The notes: generated by a model not told the origin, from the letters alone. 64,000 nt of DNA from Massalongia carnosa (GCA_965645245.1 OZ287068.1:1-64000), one strand, 5' to 3'; positions 7,121-52,400 are shown, numbered from the stretch's first letter. Program-made: numbers and translations.

Positions 7121-7800
7121 TCAATTAAGCATATGGGATAGGAACATCCTCTTCATGTCACGGTAGCAGAACCTAAACTCTGCAGGCAGCTTTGCACCTT
7201 CGCGTCTTAGCTCCTTAGTCTGCTTGTTGATCTTGTGCATGGCCTTCCAGATATCTGCGTCAAACTGCTCGAGGTTAAGAACGTGAAGGTACTCCAGCCA
7301 GGACTTCAGCAATCGAGGGTTCTCCTGCACATTGTACGTCTCATACCATGACGCCGCTTGGTTGAAACTAATGAAGGCGTCGCGGAGATCTTTTACTGCT
7401 CTCCACCTCCGCTTATACTCCTCGTGCATAAGCATGTTCCCAACCGGTATATTCTCACCATGTGGTGCTGCTAGTCGCCACGTCTCCCAGTTGATCTTAG
7501 GCTTGAACCACCCTAACCCGGATAGCTCTATACTCTCCTTCATCCCGAGTCCTTCCTTGACGATGGTCTTCCCTTCTTGGACAACCCTCCACCGGTCCTT
7601 AAACAGTAGGGACTCTCGCGCCAGCATATTTCCACCGAAGCAGAAGCGGAGTCCCCGCAGCGCAACAACCATGATGATGGTCTCAGGCAGGGAGTACGTC
7701 TTAGCTGTGTGGGCAAGAACATGCTCGAACAGGAACCAGTATTTGGGATCTGGGCGTGGAGGAGGCATACAAAGTCGATTGTGGGTACAATGTAATATGC
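7121..7800 (-). pseudogene. Unknown protein fragment interrupted by the Copia insertion
   Basis: 215-aa ORF with protein-like composition abutting the Copia LTR at 7805; no motif recognised. Confidence 0.35.
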
Positions 7801-8139: not shown

Positions 8140-8474
8140 TATGAAATATAAATTCAATTTGTAGGTATAGTAGCATGATTGTCATTGAAGGTAAATATCT
8201 ATGTGGGCTATTTGTCTGCTTTATATAGCAGTTACAAAACAGTCACATCTAGGAGGTCAGACCTTGTCCCCCTGACGGTCAGACCTTGTCCTCCTGGCGG
8301 TCAGACCTTGTCCTCCTGACGGTCAGACCTTGTCCCCCTGACGGTCAGACCTTGTCCCCCTGACGGTCAGACCTTGTCTCCCATCTCTGCTTGTTTAGGC
8401 ACTTTGCAAGGCACCTCCCGAGGCTCATGATGGATGCCCATGATGATGGTGGCCTCATCATCTAACATCCAACA
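8140..8474. mobile_element. Solo LTR nested in the Copia 3' LTR
   Basis: TATG...AACA segment flanked by a 5-bp TSD ATTAC (8135-8139 and 8475-8479). Removing it restores the LTR end seen at 13341-13349. Confidence 0.85.
8255..8380 (+). repeat. 22-bp tandem repeat GGTCAGACCTTGTCC(C/T)CCTGAC, about 5.7 copies
   Basis: Head-to-tail units starting at 8255, 8277, 8299, 8321, 8343 and 8365, with no spacers. Confidence 0.95.
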
Positions 8475-37430: not shown

Positions 37431-38651
37431 TTTGATATTGTTGCACACATGAATATTAGTTCAGTTATTCAATATTCATGAGCTCTTGATTGTGTAATTA
37501 TCTATCGAAAATAAAAACGATGTTTTAATAGATGTAAAAGCGTCTAACTTCTTCTCAATAGTGTCGAAATTGATGATGATGATTTTAATGACTTTTGATC
37601 GTTGAAGGGATTTTTTAATCTTAACTTTAAACTGATAATTTTTTATTGCTTCATCAATCTGTATTTGAATTTGAGATTTGAAAGTTCAATTTGAGAGTCG
37701 CTTCTCTGATATTAGATAGTAGCAGTCATTGTAACAATGAACGAATTCACAAAAGCATTTGAAAGGCGTTTTTTGTTCATTAAATGTCGCCTAGTGAAAC
37801 GAAGCTACCTTGTGTTTATTGCTATTCCAGTGTTTGGGCAAAGTCCTGACCCTAGTGTTATGATCTACCTAGAGACTAGTCATAGGGATGCAAGAAACGA
37901 ATACAATCAAGATGAGGAAGAAAAGAACAATTGAAACACAAATCTCGCCCCTATATAGTCCAGCGGCCCCTAGCCCTCAACCGACTCGTGGAAGGATCTA
38001 GAAGGTTCGAGCATTGACCAGCTATGGAAACCGTGAATGCTGTTATGATTACGCCGCGGAATGGGTTGGGTTGGGTTGGGTTCGGGTTGGGTATTCATTG
38101 GGTTACCCAAATCACATGCTTAGTAATGGTAATCAATAACCTTGACTTATCATTGCCTCAGTACCTCAGACGTGAGTGGCTCAATGAGCCGGCTAAGCCC
38201 CTCCGGGTTAGCCTATTTTAGCTAAGCCCCTTCCGGTTAGCGTCGCTGCTGACTAACATCAGTGCGATAGCACGTCTGAGCGCAAAATTCAAAATTACGG
38301 CCAGATCCGCGTAATAAAAATTTTAGCAGTGCAACCATTCCTTTTATGGATTTAATACAATGATTAGGGTCGTATTAGTTTACCAGAGACTGTATTTTAT
38401 ACCAAAAACGCACCTCTCAAGATGGATGACTCGATAATCATGTGTTATAACTACTGTCAGGCTAAGAAAAGCGATGTGAAAGTCGATTAAGTGATAAATT
38501 GTTCGCTTTCGCTCAATTTTGAGGTTGATGAACTGATTATTTTCATGTGGCGCGATTACATTGAGTTACAAAGATCATGATGATATGAATAACGACGGCC
38601 AATCAATGGTATTGTATGATTTATCTAGATTGAAGCTATCTGACGAAAGCC

Positions 38652-41363
38652 ATGGCTCTTGTCGGGGGCCCCTCCTCGCCACTTACCGACCTACGGACAA
38701 GTCCCTTGACTCCCGCCGGTGCGCTCAAGCGGCCCCACCCATCGCCGTCAGGCAGTAATGATAGCTCACCCTCTTCCTCCTCCCCTCCTGCCTTACCTGA
38801 AAAAAATAAAGGCGCGAAACGCCACCGCCGGCGCATATCAGATTACGCCAAGCTGGTTGAGGTGCTTAAATTTCTGAGCTCTCTAAATTGGTCGGTAAAA
38901 GATTTTTTATCAACACTTTGTAAGAATCGAGCCCGTCATAGTATGCGAAAGGCGCAAGGCCAGCTCTTCGATTTTATCTATGTCGATATTGTGCGGCAAG
39001 AAGACTTTTCAAGCCTCATTGGGCCTGGTAGAATATCCACTATCCTTCGCGAGAGAGGATGGGTTTGGGCCGCGGATGTGCTTCGTGAAGAAATCAAAGC
39101 TTTGGCAGATCACGCAGCCTTTGGCCCTTTCCAGCCGCCCTCTGCGACAGTCGAGTTTGGGACCTTGGAGGCTATTAAACTTGCTGCATCTGCCGCCAAG
39201 CAGTTGGCGCCACGATGGCTTGAGCTAATTGATAGTGTTTGTCGCGAGGCTCGCCCGCAGGAACCTCTCGATGTGACGTTGGATTCTCCCAGCGGCCGGC
39301 ACACCGTTATATTGGCAATGCTTTGTCACAAATTGCGACCAAATAAGGCGACCAATATTCAGTCCGTCTTAGGCCTTTATATTTATCAAGGTGGGGCGAG
39401 GCGGCGAGTTCTAAATACACTCTGTCATTTTGACCTGACGATGTCATATACTACCCTGCAGCGGCGCATGTTGTCCTTGATTAAGGAGGCCGAACGAAAG
39501 GTTCAGATGCTAGGACAAGGCTCAAACATGATCTTGACATACGATAACTTTGACTTCGCAGAAGGTAAACGAGGAGAGCGTACGGTGGATAATAGAGACG
39601 TCAGATCAATCACTACCGCTCTAATTTTCCAGGGGCAAGGATTCGATGCCGGCGCTTTGAGGCAGGATATGTGGCGCCCCGCCACGCATCTTTTATCAGC
39701 TGAAAGAATTGCGCGAAAGCTAGAGACTGGTGATCTCGAGATGCAGGTGAGTTCAATACAGGACGAGGTGTATATACCGCGCTCAATCGCTAATGCACCG
39801 CGTACCTAGATTCGTCTTCATCATCTAGAGTCAGCGATTCGAGCGCTTTATGGCCCAGAGATCGGCGACGTTCAACTTCCTTGGTCGACTGCAATGCCCG
39901 TGCTGAATAAGATGAAAAAATACAAGACCAATTACATTCCTATCAAACCAGTCATGAAGGATGAGAGCACAACATCTAATAATATTCAAATATTGGAGGA
40001 TATATTTGTGCGACAGTTCAAGTTCAAGGAGGATGACTCGACGTTTGCGAGCGTCATTCGGCTTATCTATGGTGACCTCAAGACATAGTCGAGAATGCAA
40101 TCTGTCAAGGAATTACGTCGTGGGATATCGGAGCAATCTTTCGATCGGTTCGACTGGATTTTACCGGGATTAGGGTTATGGCATCTTCGCTTTAACATGC
40201 TGCAGCTTATTCATAAAATACATTGGGGAGAGGCCCAGCCGGTTGATCCTTCGACTCTTCAATATGCCACCGATCGGTGGGGCCGCGCTCGTGTCGTGCA
40301 GCCGAACGATTTCCAGGCCTTAGAGGATCTGATCATTCAGAGCTATCAAGCTAGAATCGTTGGGACGTGGATTAGGTTTTTACGAAAAGATGGATATGCT
40401 CCGCAGCGAATCGAAGCAACTATTTCGTCGCTCACAGCGCAGACTTGCGGGCAGGATGGCACATGGATGAATATGTTGGGCAGGATATCTCGCAAACTTC
40501 ACGCGGAATTACCCTCAACGTCAATAGATATGCTTCCTCCAACGCTTGATCAACAATTTCAGAATCATCAGAACTTCTGTGATCACGTTGAATCGTATCT
40601 AACACTTCGATACGCAATCAAATATGCGGATATTGGACTACTTCGTCACGCATTGCGCCACGCAACGGTGATCTTTCAGGCAAGCGTAGCTGGCAACCCG
40701 AAATATGCGCAAGCTCTTCTATACACCCTTCATGCAATTGATTCTTCCGCAGCGACCATAAGGCTACAGGAAAGTATTTTAATGAATAGTCTTGTCAAAT
40801 TACGCGGTGACGAAGAGTCGAGTTTTGAGACTGATCGGCTTTTAGAGATACTAAACAATAACCTCAAGACGTTCCAGCACGAGCGATCTTATTTTTCAAA
40901 GTATAGTGATACCTTGCTCGAGAACTGGGCACTCAACGGTCCATATCTTATGAAGCTCAAAGAAATCGTTGAGTTTTACTTTGGAAGAGTCAACTCTTCA
41001 AGGCATCCAGCAAAATCGGCCGCAGAGGATGTGTGGGGCATGGCTACGGCACTAGCGCATAAATCACTCTGTAAAAGAAGCTATGATCGATTTTCAACTA
41101 ATCCAACAGCTAATCTTTATGTTGAGGGATTGAAGAAACTTGGAGAAAATGTATTAAAATACAATCAGCAGTATCTTTCCGAAGAAATTTCAAAAGAAAT
41201 TTCAACAGACGACCTTGAGGGTAAGTATGAAGCCGAGCCGATTTTGTCAATGAAACAAAGCAGGTCCCCGACAGCCCTGTCATTTCAATGGCCCGTCTCG
41301 AGATATCCGGCGGTATGTTTTTTGATTAAATCATCGATACCACGAGATAGCCTAGTCATGTAA
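38652..41363 (+). CDS. Academ-type (DUF6589-like) transposase, one intron and one premature stop
   Basis: YDNFD, GDLKT, PGLGLWHLRFN and DRLLE motifs. Intron 39747-39809 (GTGAGT..GCTAAT..TAG); in-frame TAG at 40086. Confidence 0.8.
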
Positions 41364-41427
41364 ATCCGCGCCGCGCGGCTTTATTGAGTCAGAGGTAGCG
41401 GACGGGGCACTTTCTTTCTTGTCTAGA

Positions 41428-43633
41428 TCATGTCGGAGGAAGGGCCATAGGTACATTCAGCGACAACGCTTCCATAGGATCTCGAGGCGCTTTTTTGGTC
41501 TTTGATGCCTTCATCGATGATTTAAGAGCATCAACATTGTCAACAACGAGCGCCGCATCGGAGATATTGTGATTAGGCGCAGGATTCTCGCCCGATGGCT
41601 CCGTGCTCTCGCTTTCCTTCGAGACTTCCTTCTTGACCGCATTTCGCTTTTTAAAAACCTTTCTCGACATATATCCTTGTTTGATCATCCAGTTTTTCCT
41701 CCGTTCCTCAAATTCAATACTGGCGGAGTTGCATGTTAGGCTGGGTAATCGTTTTCTCTTTATGTCGTTGTGTCGTTTCCATTCCTCGAACATGTCTCCC
41801 TCGTCTAATCTCATTGCTTGACCCCGCTTTAAAATTTCTAAAAGCTCGGCGCCGTAGGGCCTAATACCAGTCCATGTGTTACCAATCCATCGCCGCATGG
41901 TGGGCTCGTCCACAATCTGATCCGCCCAAGTGGTCAAAGAATTCAGTACCTCATCGGGCATTATCAATGATGGGAAGTATCGCATATGTGAATTTGGGAA
42001 CTTTTCCTGCGCCTTGGCCTCCCTCCATTCTCGAAGTTTAAGGGTGAACCAAGGCCGCCTAGACGAGTCACGCTCGGCCGTTCTATTTAAAATTTCATTG
42101 GCGGCTGTTGATGTCTGAAAACTTGGATCGCAAATTGAATAGCAAGGTTGCGGCTTAACATAGGCCGACGTTGGATACACTTTATAATTGAAGAAATTCA
42201 AGCCAATACCTCGAACGCAACCATCTAAAGGCACATTGATTATCTCCCAAAGACCCGGTGGCATATCTCGTCGCCGATCAGCATACTTTTGATTGATGCG
42301 GCGTTTACTGGCCTTGGATTCAATCTCGATTCCCGCGTCATATCCGTCCTGTTCGTCCATTTTTGATCCGCTTCTTGGACCCATGCACCAAGAAGGATGC
42401 AAAAGAGTAAAATGCGCCTGTTCTCGACCGCAACGTAAAGCACGACCTAAACGTTGGTATAGCTTCGCCATTGACGAGGGTAGCAGCCATTGCGTAACTC
42501 TCATAACGTCTGGATTATCAATACCAAGCCCGTATGCATCCGTTGCGATCAGGATTCGAGGAAATTTACATTGATTCGAGGGCATTTCGAAGCGGGCCGC
42601 AATCCTTTCTTTGTCTTGGGTGGCCATGTCGGAAAAGAAAGGCGCGACCCAACTAGCAGCCTCAATTGGATAGGACAATAGATTCATCCATACTTTTATT
42701 AGCGCACACGCCTTTTTGATAGATGAAATTGAATCCATGAAGATAATCGTTTTCGGAATATCAAAAGGACTCTCAGCCCGTGTTGGTAAAAGATATTGAA
42801 GATCGATCATGCTGTTCATAGGCCGCTGTAGACTGCTTGTCTGTATGTATATCTCTGGACGATCAAGCGCTGTTTGAATAACAGTACTTTCGTTATCAAA
42901 GCCACAGCGATCTTTAACGCTCTCTAGGGTTCTTGGATCCAGCGTTGCAGACGCACCCAGAAAAGGAATACCATCTGGTAATCATGTACGAAGCACACCG
43001 AGATTGAAGTATTCGGGTCGGAAATCTCGCCATTCGGATACAAGATGTATCTCATCAAGAGCTAAAAGACATAAATTCAAGAAGAAACTTGGATGCCTCA
43101 GAACCTCCTGATTAAACAGCTTTGACGTCGCTATCTCTGGGCTAGTAAAAACTATTCATATTAACGAGTAAGTTTTTATATTTATCTCAATCATAATTTG
43201 AATACACACCATGCGTATAATTGTTTTCACGAATTAACTTTAAATTAGACGAATTATTACTATCACCGTCCAACACGAAAGGCTTGCATCCCTCGATAAC
43301 GCTCAATTTCTTGCACTGTTGAGCTTCTAAGGTCTTGAGAGGCATGATAATTAAAGCGATCTTAAGACAAGAGAACATTAATGGCATAGCTTGAAAGATA
43401 ATACTCTTTCCAAATCCAGTCTTGGCGATAAATATCAGATCCTTTTGATCTTGTGCTAAAGTCATGATAGCGTCAACTTGCTCATTCTTTGGATAAAAGC
43501 CGAATTTACTTAAAATCACGGTCGTCACCTGCTCGCGAGTTATTGACGCTATAGGATCGTCCATTTCGATGTGTTCGCGAGCGATATTCGACGATTCGCG
43601 AGTTGGATTCTTAGCCCGCAAAACGCATATCAA
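41428..43633 (-). CDS. RecQ-like SF2 helicase of the Academ element, one intron and one premature stop
   Basis: AKTGFGKS (I), DEIH (II), FRPEY, SAT (III), ATDAYGLGID (V), QRLGRALR (VI) and an HRDC-like LREWR..LIMPD segment. Intron at about 43152-43207; TGA at 42982-42984. Confidence 0.88.
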
Positions 43634-45661
43634 GCAAGTTCATCACATTCAACGATTATAGGCTTTCGAAAACAACGCTCGGAGGATCAGATTAAAGATC
43701 AGAAGCGCCGACAATGAAAAACTGGAGCTAGTGACCCGTTGAGTCTGCTGTGGTGGTGTCGAAATTTCGAGTCAAAGTCGAGTCCTCGTCGCGAGATCGA
43801 TATTGCGACTCAATTTTGCATCGATATGTAATTAAAATATTGATTAATCGATAGAATGTATATCAAAACATCATTTCTATTATTACATAATTTATGAAAT
43901 GTCGTTGCGCGTTGTTGATTCCGCAGTCAACTTGATTCTTGATGATTTTTGAGGTTAAGCCAAAAATTTGTATTAGCGCGCACCAAAATAAGCCGGATCT
44001 GACAAAAATACAGAGTTTTGCGCTCAGACGTGCCGCCCGTAGCTTGCGTAGTCAGCTAAAGGGCCGCTAACCCGAAGGGGCTTAGCGAAAATAGGCTAAC
44101 CCGGAGGGGCTTAGCCGGCTCATAGAGCCACGCACGTCTGAGGTACTGAGGCAAACTTATCAACGTGGCGATCGGCGTTAGTATCTTATGTATTCTCAAC
44201 TATACCATCTACTTACCACCAGGCATACTCTTCCTGGTGGTTGGTTTTCTTATCGCACCTGTTCTGGCACCTGGTCCGGGTATTCTGTCGAGTGTTCGGT
44301 TTGGAATTCGCGCAGGTTTGCGCGTACGCTTGCGCGGAGTCTTCGGTGCCATATCTAAAAGCAAACAGGCAAGCAGACAGGTTATCAGTGGTCGAGCGTG
44401 GCAACTAGGTTAGGGTGGGTAAGGTTAGGTTCAGTATGACTAGGTTGGGTAGGCTAGTTTAGGTGGAATATGTATGCATGCGTTGGATTTGACTGAGTTT
44501 TTAGAACGTAAATGTTGTTATTAATGCTTTATCGCAGCATAATGTAGTCAATAAAGTTACATTCCTACAGATACATTCCTACTGCTACATCCTATATATA
44601 CATTCCTATATACAATCCTCGTCATTCGCAACAATGAGCAGCTCGCAGATGATAGATTCAGAGATATACGATCTTCAAGTTGTGGGCAAATCCACCAGAT
44701 GCTACGCATATGTGGCCGAGAAGAGCGAGGAGTGTATGGAATGGTGTCGAAGTACGAGATGGCATTTTGCTAATGAAGGGAAGAGTAGAAAGGCGATGAA
44801 GAAGATCGATTGGGGATCGACCAAAAGAGAGGCGGCGGAATGGAAAGAGTTTCAGGAAGGCGCCACTGTGGGCGATGGTAATCCCAAAATAATCTGCTCG
44901 CGATGCTCCCTGGTCTTGACTCATCCCTCACTGGGCTCCGGAAATAACTGCATGACTATTCTAATCACTTAAATTCCGAGTCCTGTAAAAAGACGTCGAC
45001 ATTGAAAGGAATGAAGCAACTTTCCTTAAAGGTTGGATATCGTGCCGAAGTATGACTACTACAATGATTACCACATTACGTGCTTTGCTAATCAATATTA
45101 GATTGAAGCAAAAAGACAAGAGGCCTTAACTCTCAACGGGCGTAGACTAAAAAAGGATGATTTCACGCCTCAATTGCTTCGTATGATTGTTGCTCTTGGG
45201 CTACCGTTACGAAGTGTCGCCACTAATCGAATTGCAAAGAGCGTTCAACTGTCTGCTCGATAATGTACAATTTCCTTCACTATCGACAATCAAGAATCGC
45301 TTGATTACCCGAAGTCAAGAGATTATTCCGCTTTTGCTTGAGAGGCTACCTAGGGTAGTTCAAAGGTCTCTCTGGCTTTGGATTGTTGGTCGTTATTTAA
45401 TCGTCAAGGTTATCTGGCATCAATGCTTACAGTCGACTGCAAAAGGTTGGTCGCGACCCTGAATTTGGGACCACAAATCAAATATTTATGCGAAAATGGC
45501 AAAATGCCGGCAAAAATCTGAAAACTACCCTCACCGCCTACATGCCAATGAAGTCGTACTACTGGTCAGTATTGAAGCGATTTGTAGATTAGTATATGTA
45601 GATGCCATTCCCCGTCTTTTTTCCCTCCCCCCTCTGCCATTCCCCATTTTTTATCTCAGAT

Positions 45662-49435: not shown

Positions 49436-52400
49436 CCATAATTATCGCCCGTGACACTTGGCGGCGTTTAAAATCCTAAATTCCGCGATTTTTTCTTGTC
49501 ACGCCAAATAGCTTTAGTAACCCGAAGTTGTAGTCTCGCGCAGCGAGAAAAAATTTTATTTTGAAGCAATTTAAACCGTCAAATAGAGCATCCTTCAACG
49601 AGTAGACCCGTGCCTGAATTGTCCGATTTAATGTGCTGTGAAGTGTAGGATCGCCGTGCAAAACCGACGCCCTGCTTGGCCCTGGTCGTTGCGAAGGTCG
49701 ACATTTGCGCTTCGCAATCGAACCACAAAGGGATTTTGCTAGAATTTTGAAACTGGGATTGCTGAAAAGAGCTACTTCTGGATAGAAGAAACATCTTACC
49801 CCGAGTAGAATTAACGTAGCGCTGATGGCGGGATATGTGGTGCAGTTGCACGCCTCGTCACAAGATGTCCCACCCAGTCACAGGAACGAGAAGGAGGGAC
49901 TACGGGCACATTACGAGTGATCGCTTCTTAGTAGAAACGGTGTTACAGGCCTCCATGACTAGTACTCGTAGAGAGAAAGAGACGTACCATTGGCCTATCT
50001 ACGAAGCAGATCCTCTCCAGCGTCAATACGCTTAGAGATCTGATGTCCGGAGAGCCCCAAACTGTCAACTTCCCGCGCAATATCCCACGGATCCCTCCCC
50101 TGCTCATTCGCCTTCCCCTGAAGGTACCGACGGATCCGTCTCTTGACGTAGAACCGCTGCCTCAGGGCAGGAGTGTACGTCCACTTAGCCCCAAAGAGGC
50201 GGTCCAACTCGTCGAGAGATGCACGCTGGACCCCCTCCACCAACGTCCCCACCGCGAATTCCTCCAACGCCGCCTCCGCCGAGGTCACGCCGCCGAGAAT
50301 GGGCTCCGCCGGGCAGCCAGGAGGACGTTGAGACGGCCCCTCTTGGGGGAGGGAGCCACAGGGCGCAGAGACCGTAGACGTCTCTCCGGGGACGGAAGTG
50401 AGGACGACAGAAGGTGTAGGAAGGAGAGAAGCGACTGCGTCGATGTACGAGGACGCCGACGCAGCAGGCTCTTCACCAACGGAGTGCGCCGCCGTCGCAA
50501 GAGCAGTCGCCTGCCCTCGCCAAGAAGCCTCGTCCAGCAGCCAGTCCCTCCGAACAGCCTCCACAGGAACCGTCAGAAAGGATCGAGGCAGCGTCGAGAC
50601 CGTGGCCTGCAATTGTGAGAGCTGCGAACCCAGGACTCGAGCTATCTCCTGGGCATTTGCCGCCGGCAGCGCACTCAAGGTGGTCGTCAGCTGGCTCTGC
50701 CCGGAGAGCAACCTCTCCACAGCGTTGAGCGTGCGATCTTGCTTGATTGCAACACCGCTGACCTTGTTACTGACGCCATCAACGGAGTCAGCAACAAGAG
50801 GCAGCACGCCGTGGATGGCCACGTGCAAAGGTTCCTTTTCTACAGCCTCCAACTCCCGTATCTTCGCCGCGAACGCAGGCCAAAGGGGATCTCTGAAGAC
50901 TTGGTGTCTCCAGAGCGAAAGCTCAGGAAACTGAGGCTGTAGAAGCGCCGCGTCTTGCAGGGAAGACACAACGCAGCCGCAGCAACATCTCCAGAACCTT
51001 CTTCCCTGCCTTATCCGCATCAGGAAAAAGACCGCCTTTGTACGCCGCCAGAGCGTCATCCACCCAAGGCCACACCTGCCGCTGCAGGGCCAGATCCGGT
51101 AAGTGTCCTCCTCTTCTCAAAAAGTAACTCCCAGGGGAGTTGCCAAAGCCGGCGGCGCGACGCATGTAGACACGCGGCAGGCGAGTGAGTTAGTTAGTGG
51201 CCCAGACGCCACGTTCTCATCCGCCTGCTCTCATGATTTGTAGTAGTTGATATAAGGGTAATGCTAGTAAGTATAAGGGGCCATGAATCGTAGAGTACTT
51301 ACCTGGTCCGCGGGGACCTCCCACATATCGGCCAGCCGTGACGAGGACTGCCGCATGGTGTGGACCGTCTTGGAGCTGTCGACGCCGACAGCATCCAAAG
51401 CCGGCTTGATCCATCGGGCCTGTTTTTTGTCGGAGATCTCCTCCTTAGATCGCGCCAGGCTCCCGGAGATGACCTTCGTGAAATACCACGAAGATCGATC
51501 CCGGAAGTCCGGCCGCTTCTCCAGGAGGAGGTCCCAGCGCAAGACGAGCCAGTGGGCGAGGGCGCCGAGAGGACAAAGGACGACACCTCTGCTCCGCAAA
51601 GCACCATGATAATGCTGGCGGTGCGAGTTGCCCCCGTCCGCCAGAGGAATGCTCTTGCCCTGGCCAATTCGAAGGATCAACGCAAGGCATTCGGACCCCT
51701 CGTTAGGGAGGTCGTAGGCGCAGAAGTCAGGTAGCTCAGCCCTCCGCGTTGACTCCCTCCGCAGCATCATCGAATGCATTAGGAGGAAGTCGAGGCGAGT
51801 CCGCAGTAGGTGCCACTCGCCGCCCGCCACGCCCTCCTCCCCCAAAACCTTGCCCCCGGCGAGCAGCATTGCCGACAATTGAGCGGCCTGCTCAGTCGTG
51901 TAGCCGTCGGTGAGGCCGTGGATCGCGCGATCCTCGAACGAGGCCCGCTTGAAAGCGCTCCAATCGATGCGTAAGCGCGTCATCAGGGCTTTCGTGGCCT
52001 TCCCTCTGGGATGGGGCACCACCAAATTCTCTTCGAGATGCTGGTCATCGAAGAGGGCGCAGAGGGCAGAGACGTAGCCAGATTCCACGCTATCGGGCGT
52101 CAGGGGCCGGGATAAAGGGTCGTCGGCTTGCTGCAAGACGAGTCAGTAAGCTACAAAAAGATGATTCTATCCCTGAATTCGAGTTCAGGGGCCGACTCAC
52201 CGTCTCAACGAGCTCCTCGCCGTCGGAGAATTCCTCGAATTTTTCCACCTCCTCCACCTCCTCTCCCTCTACCGCTGGCGAGGCTTCCACCGCCTCCATC
52301 GCCTTCCCCTTCCCCCTCTTCAACGCGCGGCGCTTAGCCTGCCGTTGGCGATTCTGATCCCGCCGCCTGGCCTGCGCTGCTGCGCCTGTGAGCTTGGGAC

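Follow-up and report, generated by a model that had tools for sequence, protein, structure and literature searches.

The AcademH DNA transposons were reportedly defined by Kojima 2020 (Mob DNA 11:15). They are TIR elements of fungi which encode a transposase together with a helicase of superfamily 2 (DEAD/Helicase_C; excerpts of PMC10045372 and PMC10799480). The excerpt of PMC10045372 gives their target-site duplication as 9 or 10 bp and reports that a sister lineage encodes a structure-specific nuclease of the XPG type. In a full-text search whose reach ended short of the defining AcademH paper, no description was found that links Academ elements with folded or hairpin ends. Furthermore, we know of no biochemical study of Academ-type transposition, and to our knowledge nobody can say why these transposons carry a helicase or, in the sister lineage, an XPG nuclease.

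Here we analyse a TIR transposon of 6,002 bp which occupies positions 38153–44154 of the window, that is, of the whole stretch of 64,000 nucleotides from Massalongia carnosa (OZ287068.1:1-64000). Like AcademH, it is a fungal, low-copy TIR element with a transposase-like gene, an SF2 helicase gene and a long target duplication. It also fits the AcademH host range of fungi and animals, its named homologues being from the lichen-forming fungi Teloschistes exilis, Icmadophila ericetorum and Xanthocarpia lactea. The target duplication of the window element is 8 bp, whereas 9–10 bp is given for AcademH in the excerpt of PMC10045372; a related family, termed E below, has 9 bp. For the transposase-like gene of the element Pfam names only DUF6589. 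With this and with a duplication of 8 bp instead of 9–10 bp, the membership in AcademH is probable but not established.

With respect to the ends described below, the element can be compared to several other systems. Transposons of the bacterial IS200/IS605 family (e.g., IS608) have subterminal imperfect hairpins at both ends which serve as recognition elements, differ between left and right and count by structure over sequence; in the window element such a recognition is our proposal. However, these transposons use an HUH Y1 transposase on single strands, create no target duplication and have neither TIRs nor a helicase, whereas the window element has TIR tips (95-nt TIR, 94%), 8–9-bp duplications, no HUH domain and a RecQ-type helicase. 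Helitrons are likewise eukaryotic transposons with a helicase and a subterminal hairpin. In their case a Rep (HUH) protein is fused to a Pif1-like SF1 helicase, there is one 3′ hairpin, and TIRs and target duplications are lacking; none of this holds for the window element. The T- or Y-shaped ITRs of parvoviruses and AAV resemble the ends of the element in that an outer stem surrounds at least two small hairpins, in that each end comprises ∼120–145 nt and in that the linear genome encodes a helicase. On the other hand, the viral fold includes the terminus, primes replication and exists in flip and flop orientations, whereas the window element has a tip of 12–13 nt outside the stem and is integrated with target duplications. 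Flip and flop forms were not seen, as all 15 left-end and all 11 right-end copies of the E family (E-left and E-right) have a single orientation.

The ends of the hAT element Tam3 are hairpin-rich, and blocking of gap repair has been proposed as their role. This eukaryotic cut-and-paste element is similar to the window element in having subterminal regions rich in short inverted repeats and potential hairpins; it differs in being without a helicase gene. We know of no report of a single anchored closing stem in Tam3, and the literature passages found on DUF6589 and on Tam3 hairpins contained nothing relevant to DNA end structure. Judged from comparative evidence, the end architecture of the window element is unusual for a eukaryotic TIR transposon.

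Insertion site and state of the element

The ends of the element are inverted repeats of 95 nt at 94%, which are followed by a divergent stretch and by 40 nt more at 80%, and on either side of the element lies a perfect direct repeat of 8 bp, ACTTATCA (Table 1). Contigs of four public runs (X2–X5, labelled as four organisms) were compared to the window over positions 38000–44300; as these are contigs, depth and copy number are not readable from them. Empty-site contigs in X4 and X5 join position 38144 directly to 44155 with 8 letters fitting either side, which confirms an insertion with an 8-bp duplication. In the contigs of X2–X5 several different flanks abut exactly 38152/38153 and 44154, and thus the element is present in several copies. 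Runs with four different organism labels contain near-identical copies, and two of these runs also have the empty site. One run carrying the element is labelled lichen metagenome.

The copies in X2–X5 differ from the window mostly by A>G and T>C, and it is in the window's copy that G>A and C>T changes have built up, in a RIP-like pattern. At 40087 and 42984 the other copies have G (TGG and, on the coding strand, CGA), and therefore both nonsense codons described below are private to the window's copy. Internally deleted derivatives are represented by a 1.58-kb element with a 9-bp TSD and by a contig joint of 40695 to 43459. Some further joints are weak: one of 38274 to 44045, which resembles a miniature derivative, has a short side of only 26 letters, and those of 44086 to 44134 and 44086 to 44132 come from one run only.

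Outside the element, a short GGGTT/GGGTTG repeat runs through 38058–38095 just beyond the left target duplication, and several run contigs part from the window sequence around 38040–38083. The GC content is 0.61 at 50001–52000 as compared to 0.42–0.53 elsewhere in the window.

Table 1. Features of the element, its ends and its insertion site (positions in the window)
Feature	Position	Strand	Basis
Target-site duplication, left copy, ACTTATCA, 8 bp	38145..38152	.	sequence and empty-site contigs
Left tip TTGCCTCAGTAC, unpaired, holds first CCTCAG	38153..38164	+	sequence, fold
S1 tip-side arm, left, CTCAGACGTG	38165..38174	+	fold, covariation
Hairpin 1, left, GGCTC-AAT-GAGCC; right copy differs only in loop	38178..38190	+	fold
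Hairpin 2, left, first 21-nt near-palindromic unit	38192..38212	+	fold, repeat count
Hairpin 3, left, second 21-nt unit, 29 nt after first	38221..38241	+	fold, repeat count
Hairpin 4 region, left, 9-bp interrupted stem, contains GCTGACTAAC; alternative pairings exist	38243..38267	+	fold
S1 inner arm, left, CACGTCTGAG	38271..38280	+	fold
Post-stem TIR segment, left, 80% matched to right end	38281..38310	+	alignment
Transposase-like gene, Pfam DUF6589 (3.7e-45)	38652..41363	+	Pfam match
RecQ-family SF2 helicase gene	41428..43633	-	DEAD (3e-07), Helicase_C (1.3e-11)
Post-stem TIR segment, right	43994..44022	-	alignment
S1 inner arm, right, 11 nt	44023..44033	-	fold
Hairpin 4, right, sequence unlike left, also 9-bp interrupted stem	44035..44064	-	fold
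Hairpin 3, right, better paired than left copy	44065..44087	-	fold
Hairpin 2, right	44095..44115	-	fold
Hairpin 1, right	44117..44129	-	fold
S1 tip-side arm, right	44132..44142	-	fold
Right tip, reverse complement of TTGCCTCAGTAC	44143..44154	-	sequence
Target-site duplication, right copy, 8 bp	44155..44162	.	sequence and empty-site contigs

Encoded proteins

The two genes of the element are convergent, the transposase-like gene lying on the plus strand and the helicase gene on the minus strand. The transposase-like gene is one reading frame broken by an intron of 63 nt (39747–39809, GTGAGT...CTAAT...TAG). The acceptor of this intron accounts for the first apparent in-frame stop, and the intron is also supported by an alignment gap in the L001 homologue. 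A nonsense TAG at 40086–40088 replaces a tryptophan conserved in 27 homologues (YGDLKTW). AcademH transposases would have a catalytic core of the DDE/RNase H fold, for which the conserved motifs YDNFD, YGDLKTW and RLLEx(6)K are candidates. The AlphaFold model of a homologue of 838 aa (P0045) has a mean pLDDT of 60.6, with the N-terminal half below 50, and a Foldseek search of the PDB with this model, poor in its N-terminal half, gave no match at E<=0.001. A transposase profile search against PDB sequences returned one weak, irrelevant row only, and the atlas neighbours of the transposase are DUF6589 clusters, mostly from Basidiomycota.

The helicase contains the Walker A motif GFGKS and, at about 43009–43056, the RecQ motif II signature DEIHLVSEWRDFRPEY; its best PDB sequence matches are RecQ4, BLM, RecQ5 and WRN with E about 1e-4. 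Helicases of the RecQ family act on branched and hairpin DNA. A nonsense TGA is present at 42982–42984, where other copies read CGA. An HUH/Rep domain is absent from every ORF scanned. The transposase ORF starts ∼340 bp inward of the left module and the helicase ORF ∼360 bp inward of the right module.

Predicted folding of the two ends

Folded as single-stranded DNA, both ends consist of an unpaired 12-nt tip, an outer stem (S1) of 10 bp in the left and 11 bp in the right end, and four hairpins inside this stem. An earlier sequence-only reading had described the ends as nested multi-hairpin structures, and its coordinates were all found to be correct when both ends were checked. The S1 arm CTCAGACGTG is the exact reverse complement of CACGTCTGAG, hairpin 1 is formed by GGCTCAATGAGCC, which sterically allows a 5-bp stem with a 3-nt loop, and the two GCTAAGCCCC..GG(G)TTAGC hairpins are present. 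Each of the latter units forms a 5+3-bp stem with one bulged base, the second unit being weaker in the left end. This 21-nt hairpin unit occurs four times in the 64-kb window, always within the two ends, with 0.00 occurrences expected, and CTCAG occurs three times per end. Within the left hairpin 3 lies GGTTAGCG, which is the cross-family motif CGCTAACC in reverse complement.

In the right end (43994–44154) the modules are arranged in the same order. The claim that the two ends differ in loops and spacers only is true for one of the 4 substitutions found in the first 103 aligned positions, namely the one in the hairpin 1 loop. The remaining three, however, add or restore a base pair in the right end that the left end lacks, and hairpin 4 is essentially replaced between the ends, with both versions able to form a 9-bp interrupted stem. 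A conserved GACTAAC loop of hairpin 4 on covarying stems was also considered and was dropped, as the local folds are ambiguous and alternative pairings compete.

The minimum free energies, calculated with DNA parameters, were compared to those of 200 dinucleotide shuffles per end. The MFE is -29.6 kcal/mol for the left end (158 nt; mean of shuffles -19.6, z -3.3) and -38.8 kcal/mol for the right end (161 nt; mean of shuffles -22.8, z -6.0), and in both cases 0/200 shuffles were as good. For the interior without S1 the z values are -3.9 (left) and -4.1 (right), with 0/300 shuffles as good for each end. A search of Rfam at a relaxed threshold gave no match at the ends.

Relatives and the conserved tip

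A protein search found 44 homologues; the nearest cluster, with 72 members, shows 98% identity. As the comparative set we used 37 metagenome loci (L numbers) which encode transposase relatives at 25–65% identity; the transposase–helicase pair is also found in L002, L007–L010, L016, L018, L025 and L031–L033. The tip pattern CCTCAG, 2–5 nt, CTCAG detected 26 exact ends in the window and the 37 loci, and a fuzzy version of the pattern gave 58 candidate ends, some of them spurious. Across families with only 25–65% transposase identity the tip TT[AG][CT]CTCAG-N3-7-CTCAG is kept; it reads TTGCCTCAGTAC in the window and L001, TTACCTCAGCAAG in the L007 group and the large E family, and TTATCTCAG... 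in L035. In the group of L003–L005 and L012 (39% identity) there was no recognisable tip and no helicase match within 10 kb. A 15-kb TIR pair in L005 was rejected as a related element end because its terminus is unrelated.

The complete elements of the E family have 9-bp target duplications, which are exact in 5 cases and have one mismatch in 2. There is no ORF of at least 120 aa in L031 and none of at least 150 aa in L034, because these copies are heavily decayed. From start to start, the two CTCAG repeats of the tip are 8 nt apart in the window family, with its TSD of 8 bp, and 9 nt apart in the E family, with its TSD of 9 bp (38153–38169 and, e.g., L034:189-206); this match of spacing and TSD length, seen in two families only, may be a coincidence.

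Several loci show particular arrangements of ends. At L018:17990-18040 two right-type ends of two elements stand head to head with 8 bp (GTCTAAGT) between them, which could be due to a further insertion, at an existing end or next to it, or to an arrangement resembling a junction. L025:6892-19400 is a unit of 12.5 kb with two inverted right-type ends, an exact 9-bp duplication (CTACTTGCC) and a left-type end inside at 8255, which suggests that two right ends are usable together. The 1.58-kb non-autonomous derivative mentioned above (L032:538-2172), with a left-type and a right-type end and the 9-bp TSD CCTTTTTTG, lies inside a T-rich hairpin of the left end of another copy; this outer copy has lost exactly the CCGCAAGCGG hairpin, between short direct repeats. 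In L001 (3050-8406 and 11225-11250) a perfect palindromic motif with arms of up to 21 nt and the core CAAAGCCGCGC.GCGCGGCTTTG is present three times. Two of its copies bracket the 5.36 kb separating the left end of the transposon (2580) from its transposase, and this stretch is probably a nested insertion of another element. At L010:7236 and L008:972, in the same orientation as the left end and ∼1.37 kb upstream of it, there is one more terminus-like tip, whose interior is different and weakly structured. A similar arrangement, over 807 bp, is formed by the L026 tips at 7476 and 8283.

The outer stem across families

The partner of S1 lies 64–131 nt further in from the second CTCAG. The score anchored at this position is at least 9 in 20 of the 26 exact ends, as against 123 of 18,817 random anchors in the same DNA (0.65%). 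Matches to the identical 18-nt tip in prokaryotic (25) and viral (7) contigs were rejected as real ends, being chance matches, and were used as a negative control; 0/32 of these reach a score of 9, the maximum being 6.5.

S1 always starts at the second CTCAG, across 7 distinct S1 sequences. After CTCAG it continues with ACGTG in the window, GCCCTGGACGACG in the L007 group, ACCATAGAATCAA in E-left, ACGTGATTCTG..GGTG in E-right, ACCACATATTC in the right end of L034, and CTGCTCC and TCGGCAAGGGCAG.. in L035. Among 12 sequence-distinct end types, 9 have an S1 with matched changes in the partner arm. An ungapped S1 score of at least 9 is reached by 7/12 types; L035+6532 and L035-9343 score 7.5 and 8 without gaps, but their MFE structures contain clear gapped stems, 11 to ∼25 bp long. 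No S1 was found in three of the 12 types (L010+7236 with L008+972, L035-7294, and L028+6425). When arms are combined in a cross table, own arms pair at 10–16 of 16 Watson–Crick positions and arms of clearly different types at 5–9/16; E-left and E-right arms pair at 8/16 positions.

Two elements with exact 9-bp duplications are informative in this respect. L031 has an E-left and an E-right stem, which have only CTCAGAC in common and are each self-matched, and L034 combines the E-left stem with a third stem type, each again matched by its own partner. Thus, one repeated binding motif for one transposase is insufficient to account for the different, self-matched stems at the two ends of one element. 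The complementarity of S1 extends up to 18–25 bp. Its spans of 64, 71, 73, 89, 92, 101, 116 and 120 nt show no helical phasing, and such a variable, unphased span would be tolerated by a hairpin, but not by a fixed protein-held loop. In all types a tip of 12–13 nt remains outside S1.

In the 15 E-left copies 96.8% of the cells are paired in the proposed structure as compared to 30–39% in slid registers, and one S1 pair is A-T in 12 copies and G-C in 3 and is broken in none. Covariation within the E-left and E-right families is essentially nil, with 0/40 and 3/26 predicted pairs changed on both sides, and shuffles match the observed covariation score. Since a palindrome receives RIP-type C>T/G>A changes symmetrically on its two arms, double changes are weak evidence and can mimic compensation.

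The sequence-only reading would have been called into question by related elements without palindromes. We find that relatives have a self-complementary module at the same place, with S1 covarying across families and between the two ends. The module is real and non-random, and relatives have it at an equivalent position, where S1 persists through changes that match each other in its two arms.

Interior hairpins, short motifs and strand

The interiors are significantly structured in the window, in L007-type ends and in E-left (z -2.75 to -4.1), and they are unremarkable in E-right (z -0.9 and -1.2), F (-1.5) and G (-1.5). L001 is the closest relative, its protein being 65% identical and its tip and S1 being the same as in the window; its interior is no better than shuffles (z +0.4). 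The view that the nested hairpins as a whole are a conserved structure can thus be maintained for S1, which is kept in relatives, but not for the inner hairpins, which are not conserved even in L001. These small hairpins appear to be exchangeable filler or accessory sites.

The motifs CGCTAACC and CCGCAAGCGG are each present in 21/36 good ends, with 10 and 5 matches, respectively, in 556,619 background bases, these counts being inflated as the copies are related; GCTGACTAAC also recurs across families. This recurrence suggests that parts of the interior may be read by sequence, CGCTAACC and CCGCAAGCGG possibly in a sequence-specific manner.

The predicted folding has no strand bias: of 36 ends, 14 are more stable when the top strand is folded and 21 when the bottom strand is, with a mean difference of 0.5 kcal/mol. 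Therefore, folding of a single strand, a cruciform and a double-stranded palindrome are inseparable on these grounds, and no single-stranded intermediate is singled out. The earlier suggestion that the ends fold as ssDNA or cruciforms gains from the covarying S1, which favours a fold over simple repeated protein-binding motifs; it does not gain from strand preference, which fails to single out the single-strand form.

A proposed folded module and its alternatives

We suggest that the ends constitute a cis-acting folded-DNA module which is unwound and recognised during transposition, a reading to which we assign a probability of roughly 45%. The best explanation of the comparison is that each end is a three-part cis element comprising the tip, the self-complementary module of ∼65–130 nt closed by S1, and a family-specific post-stem segment. 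The tip of 12–13 nt, being conserved across families, is probably the site of cleavage and recognition.

The palindromes might instead be protein-binding sites in double-stranded DNA. The hairpins would then be operator-like dyads for a dimeric transposase or a host factor, the S1 arms would be inverted CTCAGAC cores bound by two subunits which loop the end, and the DNA would not fold. Subterminal direct or inverted binding repeats are common in TIR transposons, for example, in En/Spm, Ac and P. The threefold CTCAG of each end, the conservation of CGCTAACC and CCGCAAGCGG across families (inflated by kinship) and the lack of strand bias would fit such duplex sites, and inverted repeats would likewise covary if both of their arms were read by a protein evolving along with them. 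Nevertheless, we regard this explanation as rather unlikely, as one protein cannot read different S1 extensions of 10–20 bp at two ends which are each self-matched, as the S1 span is not helically phased, and as the complementarity goes far beyond a plausible 7–8-bp site. Another view would accept the fold and deny it a role in the chemistry of transposition: it could be a by-product of fold-back or template-switch synthesis in gap repair, or a passive stall of gap repair which protects full-length copies. The interior is indeed plastic, with modules gained, lost or replaced between close relatives; one copy is without exactly one inner hairpin, and contig joints weakly suggest variants without hairpins 1 and 2. 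Random fold-back synthesis, however, would not reproduce a stem which is anchored at the same base, the second CTCAG, in 7 sequence versions, and the existence of internally deleted derivatives means that a blocking of gap repair is not complete. Taken together, we consider a fold without such a role distinctly unlikely.

Since both genes are read inward from the ends and their ORFs start shortly inside the modules, the latter might act at the level of transcription or RNA as promoter elements, 5′-leader structures or sources of hairpin RNA. We judge this to be very unlikely. There is no G-T versus A-C asymmetry marking a transcribed strand and no Rfam match at the ends, and among the public runs containing the sequence 0 are recorded as RNA. 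In addition, the short non-autonomous derivative keeps both ends, as expected of cis-acting transposition signals. The probability that the structure is chance self-complementarity in a GC-rich terminal repeat is negligible: short palindromes are in general easy to find, but 0/200 and 0/300 shuffles were as good, the module has the same position in related families and the stem is absent at the 32 chance tip matches.

Proposed mechanism and implications

Under the preferred reading of a folded cis-acting module, the S1 arms, being 64–131 nt apart, cannot extrude spontaneously from duplex DNA, and the terminal ∼100 bp must be opened first, which is an activity of a helicase. We propose that the RecQ-type helicase would open this region, perhaps after the transposase has nicked the tip, and that both opened strands would subsequently fold back to give a four-way structure similar to a cruciform. 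The closing of S1 should place the tip beside the post-stem segment and thereby create a branched junction, on which the transposase might assemble or might complete the cleavage of the second strand. Both the RecQ helicase and the XPG-type nuclease of the sister lineage would fit a step on branched DNA. That the fold involves the helicase and a non-standard mechanism, as also raised in the sequence-only reading, is something that we only infer.

More generally, and tentatively, helicase-encoding Academ-type transposons may recognise or process their ends as folded DNA, with the helicase extruding a four-way or hairpin structure closed by S1, the transposase acting on the junction, and the XPG-type nuclease of the sister lineage being a structure-specific alternative for the same step. 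We hold this generalisation to be somewhat doubtful at present. If it is true, these transposons would be the first eukaryotic superfamily with TIRs and target duplications in which secondary structure of the DNA is needed for recognising the ends or for processing the second strand, and it would explain why they carry a helicase or a flap/bubble nuclease.

The anchored, covarying stem provides a concrete cis element and leads to the hypothesis of helicase-dependent end folding. Together with the tip it is also a simple computational signature for the poorly annotated ends of such elements in fungal genomes. If the structure is functional, it would link eukaryotic cut-and-paste elements to hairpin-reading systems which are known only from HUH transposons and parvoviruses.
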